Shown here: piece by piece, positions 1 to 6,246 of the stretch
Numbering within the stretch: the stretch's first letter is position 1
Layout of the letters: each line of letters starts with the position of its first letter
From: a virus
Taxonomy: Duplodnaviria > Heunggongvirae > Uroviricota > Caudoviricetes
Reading direction: 5' to 3' (one strand)
DNA: 21,572 nt
Virus record (IMG/VR): IMGVR_UViG_3300045988_085028
Coordinates: 1 to 21,572 of that record
The notes under the pieces: model-generated
The model's input: only the letters and a program-made list of their open reading frames with translations
The model's database searches: none
Told to the model about the DNA's origin: nothing
Program-made: the position numbers and the translations under genes

Positions 1-76
1 TATTCCCCCTAATCAAACAACTATCAAGCCATTGTTCTTATGCGCATGATAGTTGCGAGTTGGCTTATAAACAATA

Positions 77-754
77 CTAAACCGCTTTGAGCGTTCCCCG
101 AACCGTACCGACAACATATATGTCAACTATAAGGTTACCGTTACCAGACGCTGCTGAGCTCAAGGTGCATCTAAGTACGCACCCATTTTCTGTCCGAGAA
201 AACGTTCTTACGTCGTAAAGAGTTGAATCTGGTTGACCAGGAATTGCCACACCGACAAGCTCTGTTATCACATTAGGAGTTGCAACCCAACCAGTATATG
301 GATACGTTACTGTCAAATTGACAAATGAAGAGCCGGCTTGAATTGGTACTGATAACTGCTTTCTTACTACTGTATTCAACTCCCCCATTGAGGACACAAG
401 AGAAGAGTCCGGGGTGATATGAGTCATCAGGTTCACGCTGTTCAGGTTGCGCGTAATGTTAACAGCACTAATGCGGTTGGAAGTACTTTCATCCAATACA
501 GCGCTATACGCAGACAGAGCAGATTCCGAAATGATAACGCGGTTGTTAGCACTGGTAGCAGTTGCTCGCACCAATCTGTAGGTTAAGCCATTACTGTAAG
601 CACCTTTAATGTTCTGCATCAGCACCTGGTGCGAGGTCGCCCCATCCCCTAAGTACAGGAGGTTCGCACTATCTGCCGTGTCCCCATACTGACCGTCATA
701 CACTACTTGCGTATTAAGGATGTTAACACCAAATGCCCCTGCAGGGGACACCAT
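77..754 (-). CDS. Hypothetical beta-rich (S/T/N/V/G-rich) protein, 225 aa; candidate moron or lysogenic-conversion gene transcribed away from the att core
   Basis: Uninterrupted 225-codon ORF with ATG at 752-754 (MVSPAG encoded by the att core itself) and an in-frame stop immediately upstream. A GGGAG sits about 11 nt upstream. No signal peptide or TM segment is evident. I do not recognise the family. It is the only ORF of 60 aa or more in 1-878 on either strand. Confidence 0.45.
   Translation of the reverse strand: MVSPAGAFGVNILNTQVVYDGQYGDTADSANLLYLGDGATSHQVLMQNIKGAYSNGLTYRLVRATATSANNRVIISESALSAYSAVLDESTSNRISAVNITRNLNSVNLMTHITPDSSLVSSMGELNTVVRKQLSVPIQAGSSFVNLTVTYPYTGWVATPNVITELVGVAIPGQPDSTLYDVRTFSRTENGCVLRCTLSSAASGNGNLIVDIYVVGTVRGTLKAV
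738..753 (+). other. Attachment-site core: 16 bp identical to the 3' end (T-stem/acceptor/CCA) of tRNA-Arg(CCU) argW, without the rest of the tRNA
   Basis: CCTGCAGGGGACACCA at 738-753 matches the recalled 3' end of E. coli argW (...GATTCCTGCAGGGGACACCA). The sequence upstream (...caaatgcc) does not continue as a tRNA T-loop, so this looks like an attP-type core (or an attR-like junction), not an intact tRNA gene. Confidence 0.5.
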
Positions 755-914
755 TTATCAGTTCGCTCCCATCCGTACCAGTCCGCAAAATCCCCTGAAT
801 ATCAAGCCTTCCGTAGATTTACAGTTCGTCATGGTTCGCGTCAGATTGTTGACAGCCGCACTCCATGACGGGTAAAAAGTGGATAAAATAATTTTACCCA
901 CCGGATTTTTACCC

Positions 915-2072
915 ATGCTCACCGTTAAGCAGATTGAAGCAGCAAAGCCGAAAGAAAAACCATACCGCCTACTCGATGGTAATGGCCTGTACCTTTATGT
1001 CCCTGTATCAGGGAAAAAGGTATGGCAGCTTCGCTACAAGATTGACGGTAAGGAGAAAATCCTGACCATCTGAAAATATCCGCTTATGACTTTGCAGAAG
1101 GCAAGGGATAAGGCATGGACTGCGAGGAAAGACATCTCGGTTGGCATCGATCCGGTAAAGGCGAAAAAGGCTTCGTCTAACAACAATTCCTTTAGTGCGA
1201 TTTACAAGGAATGGTACGAGCACAAGAAGCAAGTCTGGTCAGTAGGGTATGCGACTGAACTTGCAAAAATGTTTGATGACGACATTTTACCTATCATCGG
1301 CGTCCTTGAAATTCAGGATATTGAGCCGATGCAACTGCTGGAAGTAATCCGCAGATTTGAAGATCGCGGTGCAATGGAGCGAGCCAACAAAGCCCGCAGA
1401 AGATGCGGCGAGGTTTTCCGTTACGCTATTGTCACTGGTAGGGCTAAATATAACCCGGCACCTGACCTTGCTGACGCCATGAAGGGATACCGCAAGAAGA
1501 ACTTCCCATTTTTACCTGCCGACCAGATCCCGGCATTCAACAAAGCACTTGCAACATTTTCAGGAAGTATCGTATCGCTCATTGCTACTAAAATTTTACG
1601 CTACACCGCCCTAAGAACGAAAGAGCTTCGTTCCATGCAATGGAAGAACGTCGATTTTGAAAACAGGATTATCACCATCGACGCCAGTGTGATGAAGGGA
1701 CGCAAAATTCATGTGGTTCCTATGTCAGACCAGGTGGTTGAACTTCTCACTACGCTAAACTCAATCACCAAACCAGTATCAGAGTTTGTTTTTGCCGGGC
1801 GCAACGATAAGAAGAAGCCAATTTGCGAGAACGCTGTACTGCTTGTGATCAAACAAATCGGCTATGAAGGTCTGGAAAGCGGTCACGGATTCAGGCATGA
1901 ATTCAGCACGATTATGAACGAGCACGAATGGCCTGCTGATGCTATTGAAGTGCAACTGGCACATGCCAACGGCGGATCTGTGCGCGGGATTTACAACCAT
2001 GCTCAGTATCTCGATAAGCGCAGAGAAGTGATGCAGTGGTGGGCGGATTGGATTGATGAAAAGGTGGAGTGA
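915..2072 (+). pseudogene. intS: P4/IntS-family tyrosine integrase (about 385 codons) interrupted by an in-frame TGA at 1071-1073
   Basis: ORF-track segments 879..1073 and 1086..2072 are in the same frame and together read as one integrase: an N-terminal arm-binding (DUF4102-like) region MLTVKQIEAAKPKEKPYRLLDGNGLYLYVPVSGKKVWQLRYKIDGKEKILTI, then TGA, then KYPLMTLQKARDKAW and the catalytic domain. From memory this is close to E. coli IntS (CPS-53/KpLE1), which has TVGKYP where this window has TI-stop-KYP. The likely start is ATG at 915; position 879 is a GTG lying inside repeat motifs. The 328-aa downstream ORF alone would lack the arm-binding domain. Confidence 0.7.
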
Positions 2073-2089: not shown

Positions 2090-4084
2090 TTATTCAGCCT
2101 TAGCAAAAGTGGTCATAGTTGTTCCACTGAAAGTGAATGACCTGTCTGTAAGAGTAACATCCTGAATAGCAAAGTAATCGCCAACACCAGCGCCATTTAC
2201 ATAAAACTCGAATATCTCAGATGTATTTTCCGGAATAATATTATTAGCAATATAACACGTAGATAAAGAACCATTTGTTGATGGTAAAGTTCCAAATAGC
2301 GTTGCATCCGATGCAGCATATATCGAACTGCTTAAATAAATATTTATATCAACATTACTCTCATAAGTAACAATTAAGTACACCCGGTCGTTAACCTTCC
2401 ACCCTCTGTCTTTTATCTTAGTATTAAGTGATAGCTTGTTAGAACTAGGGTTCGTTACGGTATTAATGGTTATTTTTGCTCCTATTGAGTTGTATCTGCT
2501 TCTGGTTACTGTATTACCAGTATTGTTCATTGTATAAAGGATTGCCCTGCTTTCTGCAAACGTCCTCATATTGATCTTGCCTAAACAATCTCCTTCCATA
2601 ACTTGTGGGCCAGACACAGTTGCACCAATATAACAATCAGTAAATACAGCATGAGCCCTGTTGTCAGTGCTTGATGCAAGTAATGAAAGTTTAAAGTTGC
2701 CCTGATCTGCAATCCAGCAACTATCAACCTTAACTACAGCATCATTGTCAAGAACAACAAACCTTCCTCCCTCATTGTAATATCCTACAAAAGCATTTAC
2801 ACCGCTTATTTTTACTACTCCATCTGGAACCGTAAAGATATCGCCTTGTATCGCTTCGCCATAGTACCCGCCAACAATATTGGTCACTCGGGTATTTAAG
2901 TACATGCCATGCCCAATGCCGAACTCAAGGTCACATCCAATTAAGCTTAAACCTTCAATAGGGGAAGTACCAGAAGCATAAAAGGCATATTCACCGACCT
3001 TATTTGATGCAAATCCACAGTTATTGAACGTTACGCGGTTGTTAGCCCCAGCAAGGTGAACTCCGCGATTTGGCGCAGGAACAAAAGAACAGCAATCATA
3101 GGTATTAAGCCAGTCGTTTATAGTATAGAAGTTCGCCACCGCGCCATTGATGAAACGACAATTATGGGTTCTTCCTAGGTGAACATATTGAATTCGGCAA
3201 GGATAGTTGGCGATGTTGTTCCCATCAACTGTAACGTGAGAGATAGATGTGCTACGTCTTATAGAGTCAGTTTCGTAGTACATGTTGACAACTGCCTCTC
3301 CAGTGAACCCACTCCCCGCAATAATGAATGACTTCTCAACGCCATCCCCGAATAGGTCAACAGTGCCTATTGTTAAATCAACTGGTGACTTAACATAGTA
3401 AGTTCCTGCAGGGACAAACAGCCTCTTTCCTGCCGATAAAGCAACTGCTGCAGCAGCATTAAAGCTAGCTGAGTTATCTGCCGCTGGATCACCAGTAATG
3501 GGGAAAAATTGAGCAACAGAAATATAATCTGCTACCGTCACTTCGTACCATGGCAAAGCAGGAGATGACGGAAGAGTGCCACTACCACCGGTGTAGATTT
3601 TATTATTATACCACCACCAGTTATCAACATTAGATAACGCCCCCTCCTGCCATACACCGCCTAACGAGAAATCAAGACCGTAAGAAGTAGCTATCTGACT
3701 TAATGATAATGTTGCCCCTCTGTCAGAAGCTAATTCTTGCCTTAATTGGTCAGGGTCATACTTCAGGACATTAGGAAAATAGAACTGCTGCGCACCGTAC
3801 GCATCATAAACAGCCATAGAATGGCCTTGCACAGTTACGAATTTGGCAATCTGTCCGTTATATACAGGATAACCAGCAGCGTTAATGATGATTGGTTGCG
3901 AAACAGGAACGTGAGAACCGTCTTCGTTCTCTACATAAACCGGAATCTGGTTTTCAGTATTTACCGGGTCAGTGTCAATTTTACCGATATAAATTTTGCC
4001 ATTAGCTACGGCTTTAAAAGAACGCGCCATAGTGAAGAGTTGCGAAGGCATGCTAACTACAACATTGGCTGTAATGTCTGTCAT
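2090..4084 (-). CDS. Tailspike protein: P22 gp9-type N-terminal head-binding domain fused to a divergent beta-helix receptor-binding/depolymerase domain (664 aa)
   Basis: The N-terminal ~110 aa ([42 protein letters not shown]...VLKYDPDQ) match the conserved P22/Sf6 tailspike head-binding domain from memory. The remainder is not P22- or Sf6-like, is AT-richer, and has asparagine/glycine-ladder character typical of right-handed beta-helix depolymerases. A GGAG lies about 9 nt upstream of the ATG at 4082-4084. Confidence 0.9.
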
Positions 4085-4354: not shown

Positions 4355-4416
4355 GCCGGAATAGTTAGATTGTATTTGTTTTAATGCCGGAATAGTTAGA
4401 TTGTATTTGTTTTAAT
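4355..4416. repeat. Perfect tandem direct duplication of a 31-bp unit (gccggaatagttagattgtatttgttttaat x2, followed by a partial gccgga)
   Basis: Units at 4355-4385 and 4386-4416 are identical. The unit is 31 bp (not a multiple of 3) and lies at the 3' end of the ant reading frame. Confidence 0.9.
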
Positions 4417-5093
4417 GCCGGATACAGTTCGCGGAATAATGCCTGTGATCGGTTGGCATAATCCCATAACCATACAAGGCTGTTTGCTTCTTTTGCAGAA
4501 AGCTCGTTGGTTTTCTTCTCTTGTTTGCCAATGAACTCACCTTCAAGCACTACCCTGTGGATGTACTCTACGGCCAGCGGGATTTGTTCAATTGAAAGTT
4601 CATCAATGCTGTCAATACCAAAACGCTGATGAACCATATTGTATGCATCGTCATAACGAAGTCCTTTCTTTCCTACCAGCATGTTTACTGCATCGCGTAG
4701 CGGTGTTCTTTCCTCAACAGTGGTTTTCTTTCCTTTTACATACTCGCCATGTTTGCGAATTGAAGGCAGAACTTCTGCTGTTACCCACTTGCGGAATTTG
4801 TGCGGGACTGAACCTTTATTGACTGCATCGCGGCAGCGCAGAACCAATGTATACATACCTGATTCGCTCACAATGCTTAGATTCTGCTCACCACCAAGGG
4901 TGTAACTTAAAGTTACTCCCTTTTCATCGTCATCAAGTGCAGTAAGCGCCTTGCGTGAGTTAGTCAGGGTTAAAGCATCACAAACATCTTTTGCTACAAA
5001 CCACGGCTCACCGCACTTGTTGATGACGCGGATTTCACTGTCGCCGAATTTGAAGATGGTGAAATCGTTTTGTGCCTTTGCTATACTTTTCAT
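4365..5093 (-). CDS. ant: Antirepressor Ant (BRO-N/KilA-type), C-terminally truncated by the 31-bp duplication (242 aa as encoded)
   Basis: Sits downstream of arc on the same strand, as in P22 immI. N-terminal region is BRO/antirepressor-like. AGGAA lies about 9 nt upstream of the ATG at 5091-5093. The last 7 codons (GIKTNTI-stop) are read from the second repeat copy in a shifted frame. Confidence 0.8.
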
Positions 5094-5152
5094 GTCAATA
5101 TTTCCTAATCCGATTTGTTGATGCCGAAGCCCTGACTGTTACAGCAGTTGGG
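5083..5152 (+). ncRNA. sar: Candidate sar-like antisense RNA (about 68-70 nt) complementary to the ant ribosome-binding site and start codon
   Basis: Putative promoter inside the ant 5' end: -35 TTGAAG (5049-5054), 16-bp spacer, -10 TATACT (5071-5076). Putative 3' end at hairpin GAAGCCC...GGGCTTC (5116-5147) followed by AACTTTA. The implied length matches the 68-69 nt P22 sar RNA, and the position (arc-ant intercistronic region, antisense) matches too. Confidence 0.45.
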
Positions 5153-5161
5153 GCTTCAACT

Positions 5162-5413: not shown

Positions 5414-5668
5414 ATGGCTAGAGATGATCCGCACTTTAACTTCCGCATGCCTTTGGAAGTGAGAGAAAAATTGAAATTCAGAGCAGAGGCGAATGGGAGA
5501 TCCATGAACTCCGAGCTGTTGCAAATCGTCCAAGATGCTCTATCGAGACCATCTCCTGTAAAAGGTAATCGCAATGAAGCTGAACGATTAGCCGAGATGC
5601 AGGCTGAACAGTTCAAGTCTGTGGTATTTGAGACACTTAAAAACATGTATGGCAAGGATGCAAAATGA
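5414..5668 (+). CDS. mnt: Mnt maintenance repressor (84 aa)
   Basis: MARDDPHFNFRMPLEVREKLKFRAEANGRSMNSELLQIVQDAL... matches P22 Mnt from memory. GGAG lies 8 nt upstream of the ATG. Its stop overlaps the next start (ATGA). Confidence 0.9.
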   Translation: MARDDPHFNFRMPLEVREKLKFRAEANGRSMNSELLQIVQDALSRPSPVKGNRNEAERLAEMQAEQFKSVVFETLKNMYGKDAK

Positions 5669-6246
5669 TCGATTACAACCCAGCAAAAAAAGAAATCATC
5701 GCAGCTAAAAAGTGCCTAGAGCAGATGAAATCATCTACAAACCATGATGATTTTGAAATGCACTGGCGAGAATGTCTTGGGCATATAGAAAAGTCTTTCA
5801 GTAAGTTGCTCTGTGCAACAAAGCCGGTTAGTGGAAAATTTAGCAGCCACTTCAACCAAAAGTTCATGCTTAGAAAAACAGACAAAACACTTGCTTACCT
5901 TCACCAGGCAAGGAATGCTGATCATCATTCCACTATGGAAATCTCAAAACTTGAACCTCCTTATACTACTCTTGGGGCATTTCCGGGAGCAAGAAGTCAT
6001 TATATTAAAGAGTTAATCATTGATTCAACAGGGGAAATAGCAAAATACGAAGGCGACCCTATGATAGTTGAGTTTCATCCAGCAACAACTATGCCTATAA
6101 CCGTAAGAAACCAAGGCAAAGATTATCCACCTCCAACAGAACATCTTGGCGAAAAGCTTGTTGATATACATCCATCTGTTCTTGCCTATCTCGGTATACA
6201 ATTTTATGAAAAATGGATAGATGAGTCGTGTGCAACGTTTAGATAG
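5665..6246 (+). CDS. Hypothetical soluble protein (193 aa), translationally coupled to mnt; function unknown
   Basis: ATG at 5665-5667 overlaps the mnt stop (TGA 5666-5668). Uninterrupted ORF in an AT-rich segment. No TM segments. I do not recognise the family. Confidence 0.6.
   Translation: MIDYNPAKKEIIAAKKCLEQMKSSTNHDDFEMHWRECLGHIEKSFSKLLCATKPVSGKFSSHFNQKFMLRKTDKTLAYLHQARNADHHSTMEISKLEPPYTTLGAFPGARSHYIKELIIDSTGEIAKYEGDPMIVEFHPATTMPITVRNQGKDYPPPTEHLGEKLVDIHPSVLAYLGIQFYEKWIDESCATFR

Follow-up and report, generated by a model that had tools for sequence, protein, structure and literature searches.

The closest named relative of the locus described here is KplE1 (CPS-53), the degraded prophage at argW of Escherichia coli K-12, in which int, O-antigen-modification genes and tail-gene scraps lie next to argW. 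Lambda-type secondary-site recombination offers a mechanistic parallel: a short identity with the att core is used, the core is regenerated, and the resulting hybrid site can be reused. The lysogenic-conversion morons oac of Sf6 and gtrABC of P22 occupy the place between tailspike and int/att. The integrases of helper-embedded PICIs target prophage late genes (PMC10111431), and for the argW-type phages and elements Kapi1, Sf6, HK620 and KplE1 the att sequence has been given as CTGCAGGGGACACCAT (bioRxiv 10.1101/2021.04.09.439263).

Here we consider a 225-aa ORF with an ATG start in the ORF listing, found in a 21,572-nucleotide stretch of a Caudoviricetes genome (IMG/VR record IMGVR_UViG_3300045988_085028) that we call the window. 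The original prediction placed this ORF among the lysogenic-conversion morons, starting inside an att core. We find that it is very probably the last ~221 codons of a P22/Sf6-type tailspike gene, fused in frame to an argW core; in other words, a remnant. By analogy, the locus would work as a classical cryptic-prophage scar. As in KplE1, there is the same 16-bp core with an IntS-type integrase, and a degraded prophage keeps int, O-antigen-modification genes and scraps of tail genes by argW; the KplE1 IntS/TorI module also has its counterpart in the tandem genome 2018-01-1CC, where torI lies at the far end. Unlike KplE1, the right boundary of the remnant is a tailspike gene fused directly to the core, and the window's module sits inside a lambda-att prophage, off argW, with its intS inactivated. 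The likeness to lambda-type secondary-site recombination extends to the short identity with the core, the regenerated core and the reuse of the hybrid site; the differences are that we infer IntS catalysis here and that what was targeted is a tailspike gene, of the phage itself or of a co-resident phage, and not a site in the chromosome. Helper-embedded PICIs are similar only superficially, in that an att core lies in a prophage late gene and the fragment abuts an int arm. Their integrases form a dedicated clade, the sites they use have evolved and recur, and the gene interruption is reversible (PMC10111431), whereas this locus has one junction lineage (9 of 5,426 genomes), an argW-specific integrase and no matching N-terminal half. 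With the morons of Sf6 and P22 the locus shares its place, and the adjacent Acyl_transf_3 gene fits, but the 225-aa ORF has no similarity to such enzymes. Among the P22/Sf6/HK620-type tailspikes themselves, the intact relatives' gene lies beside intS and the acyltransferase as the Sf6 tailspike lies beside oac, and the fragment is colinear with the C-terminal 221 residues of a tailspike that has a head-binding domain; unlike these proteins, the fragment is missing the head-binding domain together with some two thirds of the receptor-binding domain, and its C-terminal domain is H-type-lectin-like.

The tailspike link was obtained through DNA matches in E. coli genomes and an exhaustive HMMER search. 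Residues 3-225 of the ORF are colinear with residues 474-694, the C-terminal end, of the 694-aa tailspike of ST12468 (76% identity, E 4e-115), and window 1..429 has 96.7% DNA identity to the 3' end of the corresponding 2,085-nt gene. The genome annotation calls that gene a 'phage head-binding domain-containing protein', and its product carries the P22/Sf6 head-binding domain PF09008 at residues 1-113, a domain that Pfam does not find in the 225-aa ORF. Other searches with the ORF return little: Pfam gives nothing beyond a sub-threshold PDZ_1 match, PHROGs and PDB sequence searches give no match, tblastn against 50,697 phage records gives no match, and a word-indexed search of 5.8-billion proteins returns only the fragment's own cluster and a frameshifted copy. 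The HMMER search, run against 1.84 billion cluster representatives, yields six relatives and no stand-alone homologue; five of the six are 573-792 aa long and are matched only over their last ~220 residues, and the sixth, of 149 aa, is the fragment itself in a frameshifted copy (EM20-18-50, P0002). The predicted protein had been described as possibly fibre-like or a fragment of something larger, and the tailspike alignment bears out both of these hedges. Its lack of resemblance to O-antigen modification enzymes is likewise upheld, there being no Pfam or PHROG match to acyltransferase-3, GtrA, GtrB or glucosyltransferase families.

What kind of tailspike does the fragment come from? It is 44-52% identical to the C-termini of four of the long relatives (P0003-P0006), and the long relatives as a whole (P0003-P0007, L003, L004, L010) have in common a receptor-binding module of ~570 aa, to which is attached a P22 head-binding adaptor, a T7 tail-fibre N-terminus, a tail-collar fibre adaptor or no N-terminal adaptor at all. 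Several adaptors on one receptor-binding module is the usual modular build of tailspikes and depolymerases. The module has no sequence relative in Pfam, PHROGs or PDB and defines an uncharacterised family of tailspikes or depolymerases whose tip is of the H-type-lectin kind; the complete module is not present in the ORF, which spans only the last ~221 columns of its alignment. Kinship of the fragment with the window's own complete tailspike was considered and rejected, as there is no significant similarity, and the two are unrelated outside the family's N-terminal adaptor.

The fragment is itself a mosaic. Its 3' 429 nt are 96.7-99% identical to other tailspike alleles, and upstream of a boundary at ~429 the tailspike alleles fall to ~50-55% amino-acid identity, a pattern that suggests exchange of the C-terminal lectin-like domain as a module. 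For the upstream part, a full-length parent allele of 430-737 is absent from complete E. coli genomes and IMG/VR, the best IMG/VR relative being a 76%-identical allele of the ST12468 type, and no close phage or viral-contig relative of 430..737 was found.

Structure prediction adds a physical picture. A single-sequence AlphaFold model is unusable (pLDDT 38), and a model built on an 8-sequence alignment has a mean pLDDT of 74.8, the shallow alignment leaving the N-terminal 100 residues only moderately confident. Residues 1-100 are modelled as short beta strands resembling rungs, residues 104-123 as a low-confidence linker, and residues 124-225 as a confident beta-sandwich (pLDDT 84-95), in agreement with the beta-rich protein of the original prediction. 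The top Foldseek matches in the PDB are the tailspikes phi297 gp61, AP22 gp54 and LKA1 gp49 (probability 1.0), with further matches to the tailspikes of Det7 and Sf6 (TSP); for the last ~95 aa the matches are H-type lectins and the R1 pyocin fibre tip. The fragment thus runs from the last rungs of the beta-helix through a linker to a beta-sandwich of H-type-lectin-like fold at the C-terminus, and is without the virion adaptor and most of the beta-helix. In the model, the first ~100 residues appear to be an incomplete, uncapped beta-helix unable to cap itself, and the compact lectin-like domain of the C-terminal ~100 aa could in principle fold alone.

Table 1. Features of the locus, in window coordinates unless another sequence is named, with the observations on which each rests.
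Feature	Position	Strand	Basis
Intergenic spacer from tailspike stop codon to acyltransferase start	1..76	-	Related genomes and L011
ORF: tailspike 3' fragment plus two att-core codons	77..754	-	ORF listing, ST12468 alignment
Most conserved part of the fragment: C-terminal beta-sandwich (H-type-lectin-like) and linker, as modelled	77..429	-	DNA match, model
Divergent part of the fragment: last beta-helix rungs of the receptor-binding domain, as modelled	430..737	-	Genome, phage and viral-contig searches, model
Crossover interval CCTGCAGGGG, common to the tailspike pseudo-site and the argW core	738..747	.	Three-way comparison
Fossil argW-type att core CTGCAGGGGACACCAT, 3' end of tRNA-Arg(argW)	739..754	+	HK620 annotation, alignment
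Int-proximal (P') arm of HK620/Sf6-type attP and intS promoter region	755..914	+	Homology, annotation
intS pseudogene, codon 53 GGA->TGA at 1071-1073	915..2072	+	Codon-by-codon comparison with intact intS
The prophage's own complete tailspike, 664 aa, head-binding and pectate-lyase-like	2090..4084	-	PF09008, PF12708
Acyltransferase, 75-bp intS scrap, lambda-type P arm and core, ybhB-side host DNA	L011 10755-12298; L001 6457-8000		

The start codon of the ORF (752-754) does lie in the att core, as predicted, and intS is on the other side of that core. By alignment, the core matches the annotated attP core of HK620. The ATG is made up of the terminal CA of the tRNA and the first T of the int-proximal arm, reverse-complemented, such that the core supplies codons 1-2 (ATG GTG) and the tailspike 3' fragment supplies codons 3-225. 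DNA homology to HK620, Sf6 and CUS-3 sets in abruptly at 738/739 and continues through intS to about 2080, with 96-97% identity from 739 on, and other argW-integrating P22-like phages are homologous to the window over the same interval. In the P' arm region, the HK620 annotation shows attP repeats and a promoter, and at 865-892 a consensus scan picks out a promoter-like site on the plus strand. To the left of the core the picture changes: the flank differs from both the HK620 P arm and argW, it consists of tailspike DNA with neither a P arm nor an intact tRNA-Arg, and a tRNA search finds no tRNA gene in the window. That a gene initiates at the core we could not confirm; the only ORF annotated at the locus in RefSeq starts at an internal ATG and is 180 aa long (window 77..619), and the UPEC-245U copy reads CTG at 752-754.

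The junction itself is best seen on the coding strand, where the fragment reads TCCCCTGCAGGGGCATTTGG, the ST12468 tailspike GCCCCTaCAGGaGCATTTGG and the reverse complement of argW TCCCCTGCAGGAATCG. Written as codons, the fragment has ATG GTG TCC CCT GCA GGG GCA TTT GGT and the ST12468 tailspike has AAC GCC CCT ACA GGA GCA TTT GGT at the homologous place; the argW reverse complement at the junction is ATGGTGTCCCCTGCAGGAATCG. The ST12468 allele CCCCTaCAGGa matches the core, CCCCTGCAGGA, at 10 of 11 positions. In the full-length relatives the core-like sequence falls within a conserved P-x-G-A-F-G motif of the tailspike family, exactly where the fragment joins the core. The comparison places the crossover from tailspike to att within CCTGCAGGGG (738-747), and an Int-mediated event would require the overlap region to lie inside CTGCAGGGG (window 739-747). 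A match to this decamer at 9 of 10 positions is expected by chance about once per 21 kb, and therefore the pseudo-site is not statistically special; the weight of the junction comes instead from a breakpoint that falls exactly on the core-like site and from a complete core regenerated in register. The fusion of tailspike and core also creates a perfect 12-bp palindrome, CCCCTGCAGGGG at 736-747, consisting of CCTGCAGGGG and the two preceding C's with both strands matched; argW itself has only the 8-bp CCTGCAGG.

How is the fragment arranged in bacterial genomes? Of 5,426 complete E. coli genomes, 9 carry window 400-737, each as a truncated copy; the whole window is in no complete E. coli genome, with a best coverage of 76%. 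An intact prophage, in ST12468, has the order argW, intS, acyltransferase, full tailspike and late genes. The remnant stands alone in UPEC-245U, with argW, intS, acyltransferase, fragment and core followed by the host csc genes; there, the core is followed by the native B' arm, with the sequence of the empty attB, and a synthetic argW+B' query has an end-to-end match in 1,471 genomes. In 2018-01-1CC the remnant is in tandem with a second prophage, its proximal half reading argW, intS1, acyltransferase, fragment, core and intS2, and the order after intS2 being a hypothetical gene, tailspike2, late genes, early genes, torI, attR and dsdC, so that the far end of the second prophage is the normal torI-attR-dsdC. 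Finally, in P13-6, EM20-18-50 and ETEC4073 the segment is captured between ybhB and ybhC, where a 75-bp intS 3' scrap is followed by acyltransferase, fragment, core, intS and further prophage genes; towards ybhB, this cassette is bordered by a P arm of lambda type and the lambda core, TTAGTATAAAAAAGC, and next to ybhC there is an int of lambda type, with or without xis. A phage inserted in a resident tailspike with the N-terminal half still flanking was not seen; such an arrangement is possible as an intermediate.

Two side observations concern these genomes. Between the tailspike and intS of the second prophage in the 2018-01-1CC tandem, and in ETEC4073, there is a 446-aa hypothetical protein (L004 41083-42423; L007 10870-12210), which in its oac position is a different, uncharacterised moron that is not in the window. 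Additionally, IS100 interrupts the ETEC4073 fragment with duplication of window 393-400 (L007 7050/9001), and IS3 interrupts the otherwise full-length tailspike of 2017.04.03CC after window 397 (L008 9397); these two independent insertions near one linker point before the C-terminal domain may reflect a hotspot or a coincidence.

The source of the window has the captured arrangement. An ENA metagenome scaffold of 40,991 bp, L011, encodes the exact protein of the ORF; it matches the window at 100% identity over 10,754 bp, and to the left of this match it has the acyltransferase, then the 75-bp intS scrap, then a lambda P arm with its core, and finally ~40 bp of host DNA from the ybhB side. The scrap duplicates the 3' end of intS (window 1989-2063). 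In the source element the whole cassette is thus inside a P22-like prophage at the lambda att site, and about 1.9 kb separate the argW core, now an internal fossil, from the true end of the prophage. We also considered, and rejected, a plain attP or a prophage-host junction as the identity of the window, there being no tRNA or P arm on the left and a lambda att junction further left; the predicted placement of the ORF's 5' end at a host junction fails with it, the real junction being the lambda-type att ~1.9 kb to the left. No intact cognate integrase for the argW-type core is found in the window, as codon 53 of intS is TGA, which leaves an Arm-DNA-binding piece of 52 aa and a second piece of 328 aa. 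P13-6 and three short Logan contigs share this split, the P13-6 intS being annotated 'internal stop', and a dead intS fits a prophage that now uses a lambda-type integrase. Elsewhere in the window, the immI region has at 5095-5161 (+) a sar antisense RNA of P22 type (Rfam RF00262, 65.6 bits), between ant (4365-5093, -) and the arc/mnt genes, and a 193-aa ORF at 5665-6246 (+), between mnt/arc and sieA, has no Pfam family among the precomputed hits of the source contig.

The gene adjoining the fragment deserves attention of its own. Immediately downstream, just outside the window, is a 371-aa acyltransferase of the Acyl_transf_3 family, at most 31% identical to the phage O-acetyltransferases in our phage collection, and this is the real conversion-gene candidate of the locus. 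In L011 and in all related genomes, its CDS has a boundary at the base just before the window match. The idea of a conversion-gene position survives for this neighbor, although not for the ORF itself, which is unrelated to O-antigen-modifying enzymes.

From these arrangements the history of the junction can be assembled in part. The ancestral prophage had the order argW-intS-acyltransferase-tailspike-late genes, and its tailspike had a match to the left part of the core, CCTGCAGGGG, in the conserved P-x-G-A-F-G motif. Recombination of this pseudo-site with a genuine att core, in which IntS was most likely the catalyst, would have deleted everything upstream of the site and left intS-acyltransferase-tailspike'-core as its product. 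Two routes could lead there. In the first, the middle attP of a tandem lysogen would recombine with the pseudo-attB in the upstream prophage's tailspike, and the intervening DNA would be lost; in the second, another phage would integrate into the resident tailspike, and an excision-type recombination with the distal attR would follow. The hybrid site was then used at least once more in a precise site-specific event, as its left arm is the same whether what follows is the B' arm, in one genome, or the P' arm and intS of a second prophage, in others. Subsequently, the tandem segment was captured into a P22-like phage integrating at the lambda att site.

Was an integrase needed for the original fusion? 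The same remnant could have arisen without Int, if tailspike and attR had been joined through their 9-10-bp microhomology, CCTGCAGGGG, by replication slippage or by end joining. Int catalysis and a 10-bp microhomology deletion are indistinguishable at the junction because their sequence outcome is the same; direct recombination of a pseudo-site with attR is, moreover, no canonical Int reaction in established lambda-type Int biology, and near-matches to the decamer are common by chance. Set against an Int-independent fusion are the complete core regenerated in register, the later use of the hybrid site in a precise event, which shows that the site is Int-competent, and the rarity of microhomology deletions that span ~35 kb. 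On balance we regard this course as rather doubtful, and IntS catalysis of the original fusion as most likely.

Turning to the fate of the remnant, the copies show both preservation and decay. The frame is intact in most copies, the window's included. The EM20-18-50 fragment has a 1-nt insertion and is frameshifted, the ETEC4073 fragment is split by IS100 with retention of the 400 bp proximal to the acyltransferase, and the remnant-only UPEC-245U copy has CTG instead of ATG as codon 1. The ATG is present only when the phage P' arm follows the core and is an accident of the core/P' junction. Lack of conservation in related elements had been named as grounds for discarding the ORF, and here the result is divided: DNA conservation holds across the copies, and yet the set includes one frameshifted and one IS-split copy. 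Besides the start codon, the substitutions among copies amount to about 3 synonymous and 2 non-synonymous changes, too few for relaxed selection to be demonstrated. As for expression, a consensus scan that is blind to weak or activated promoters finds no minus-strand sigma-70-like promoter site in 1-1000, and by eye there is a weak candidate in 1-76 (TTGTTT-17 nt-TATCAT, 8/12); a GGGAG about 11 nt upstream of the ATG makes translation from 752-754 possible. We conclude that the fragment is most probably non-functional and that it probably persists because of its position between a selected acyltransferase gene and the rest of the prophage.

Could the DNA have been kept for another reason? As promoter or 5' leader DNA of the downstream acyltransferase, rather than as a coding gene, the fragment would have an obvious place: in every genome the acyltransferase has the orientation of the tailspike frame and starts 76 nt past that frame's stop codon, a lysogen keeps the late operon off, from which we infer that the acyltransferase needs its own promoter nearby, and the IS100-split copy keeps the 400 bp next to that gene. 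However, the region offers only the by-eye candidate in 1-76 and nothing in the consensus scan of 1-1000, and nothing in such a role requires the 430-754 part; we consider it unlikely. Bolder still is the reading that IntS uses the pseudo-att site in the tailspike motif as a repeatable, Int-driven way of grounding the intS-acyltransferase cassette, and that the frame is expressed. This we hold to be very unlikely; if it were true, self-amputation at a phage's own tailspike would be a route to domesticating O-antigen conversion genes, and the product from the core ATG or Met46 would be a free, trimeric, H-type-lectin-like O-antigen-binding protein. Least probable of all is a stand-alone moron expressed in the lysogen, for example as a free trimeric lectin-like O-antigen binder or a superinfection blocker: the open frame of most copies, a C-terminal H-type-lectin fold that in other proteins is trimeric and carbohydrate-binding, and the conversion-gene neighbourhood speak for it, but no stand-alone homologue exists among the 1.84e9 representatives, the start codon is lost in one arrangement, a frameshift and an IS disruption are tolerated, the modelled first ~100 residues form an incomplete beta-helix with no self-capping, and promoter-like sites in the scan and Pfam, PHROG or PDB sequence matches are all lacking. 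The lysogenic-conversion moron of the original prediction, in short, is not supported, the ORF being the 3' third of a tailspike gene.

The remnant reading has several consequences. It is first of all a correction: a 'hypothetical protein' in moron position is a tailspike stub, and there is no new conversion or adhesin gene to pursue here. Truncated phage genes at fossil att sites are a known kind of feature, and what is new is this instance. It provides a clean natural record of an att-core-guided prophage truncation that spared the pair of integrase and O-antigen acyltransferase genes, and the junction also documents the reuse of a hybrid site. Additionally, the scar was captured by a phage with another integration system, so that an int pseudogene and a fossil attL-like site now lie within a lambda-att prophage, and fossil att cores of this kind can mislead the prediction of prophage boundaries.
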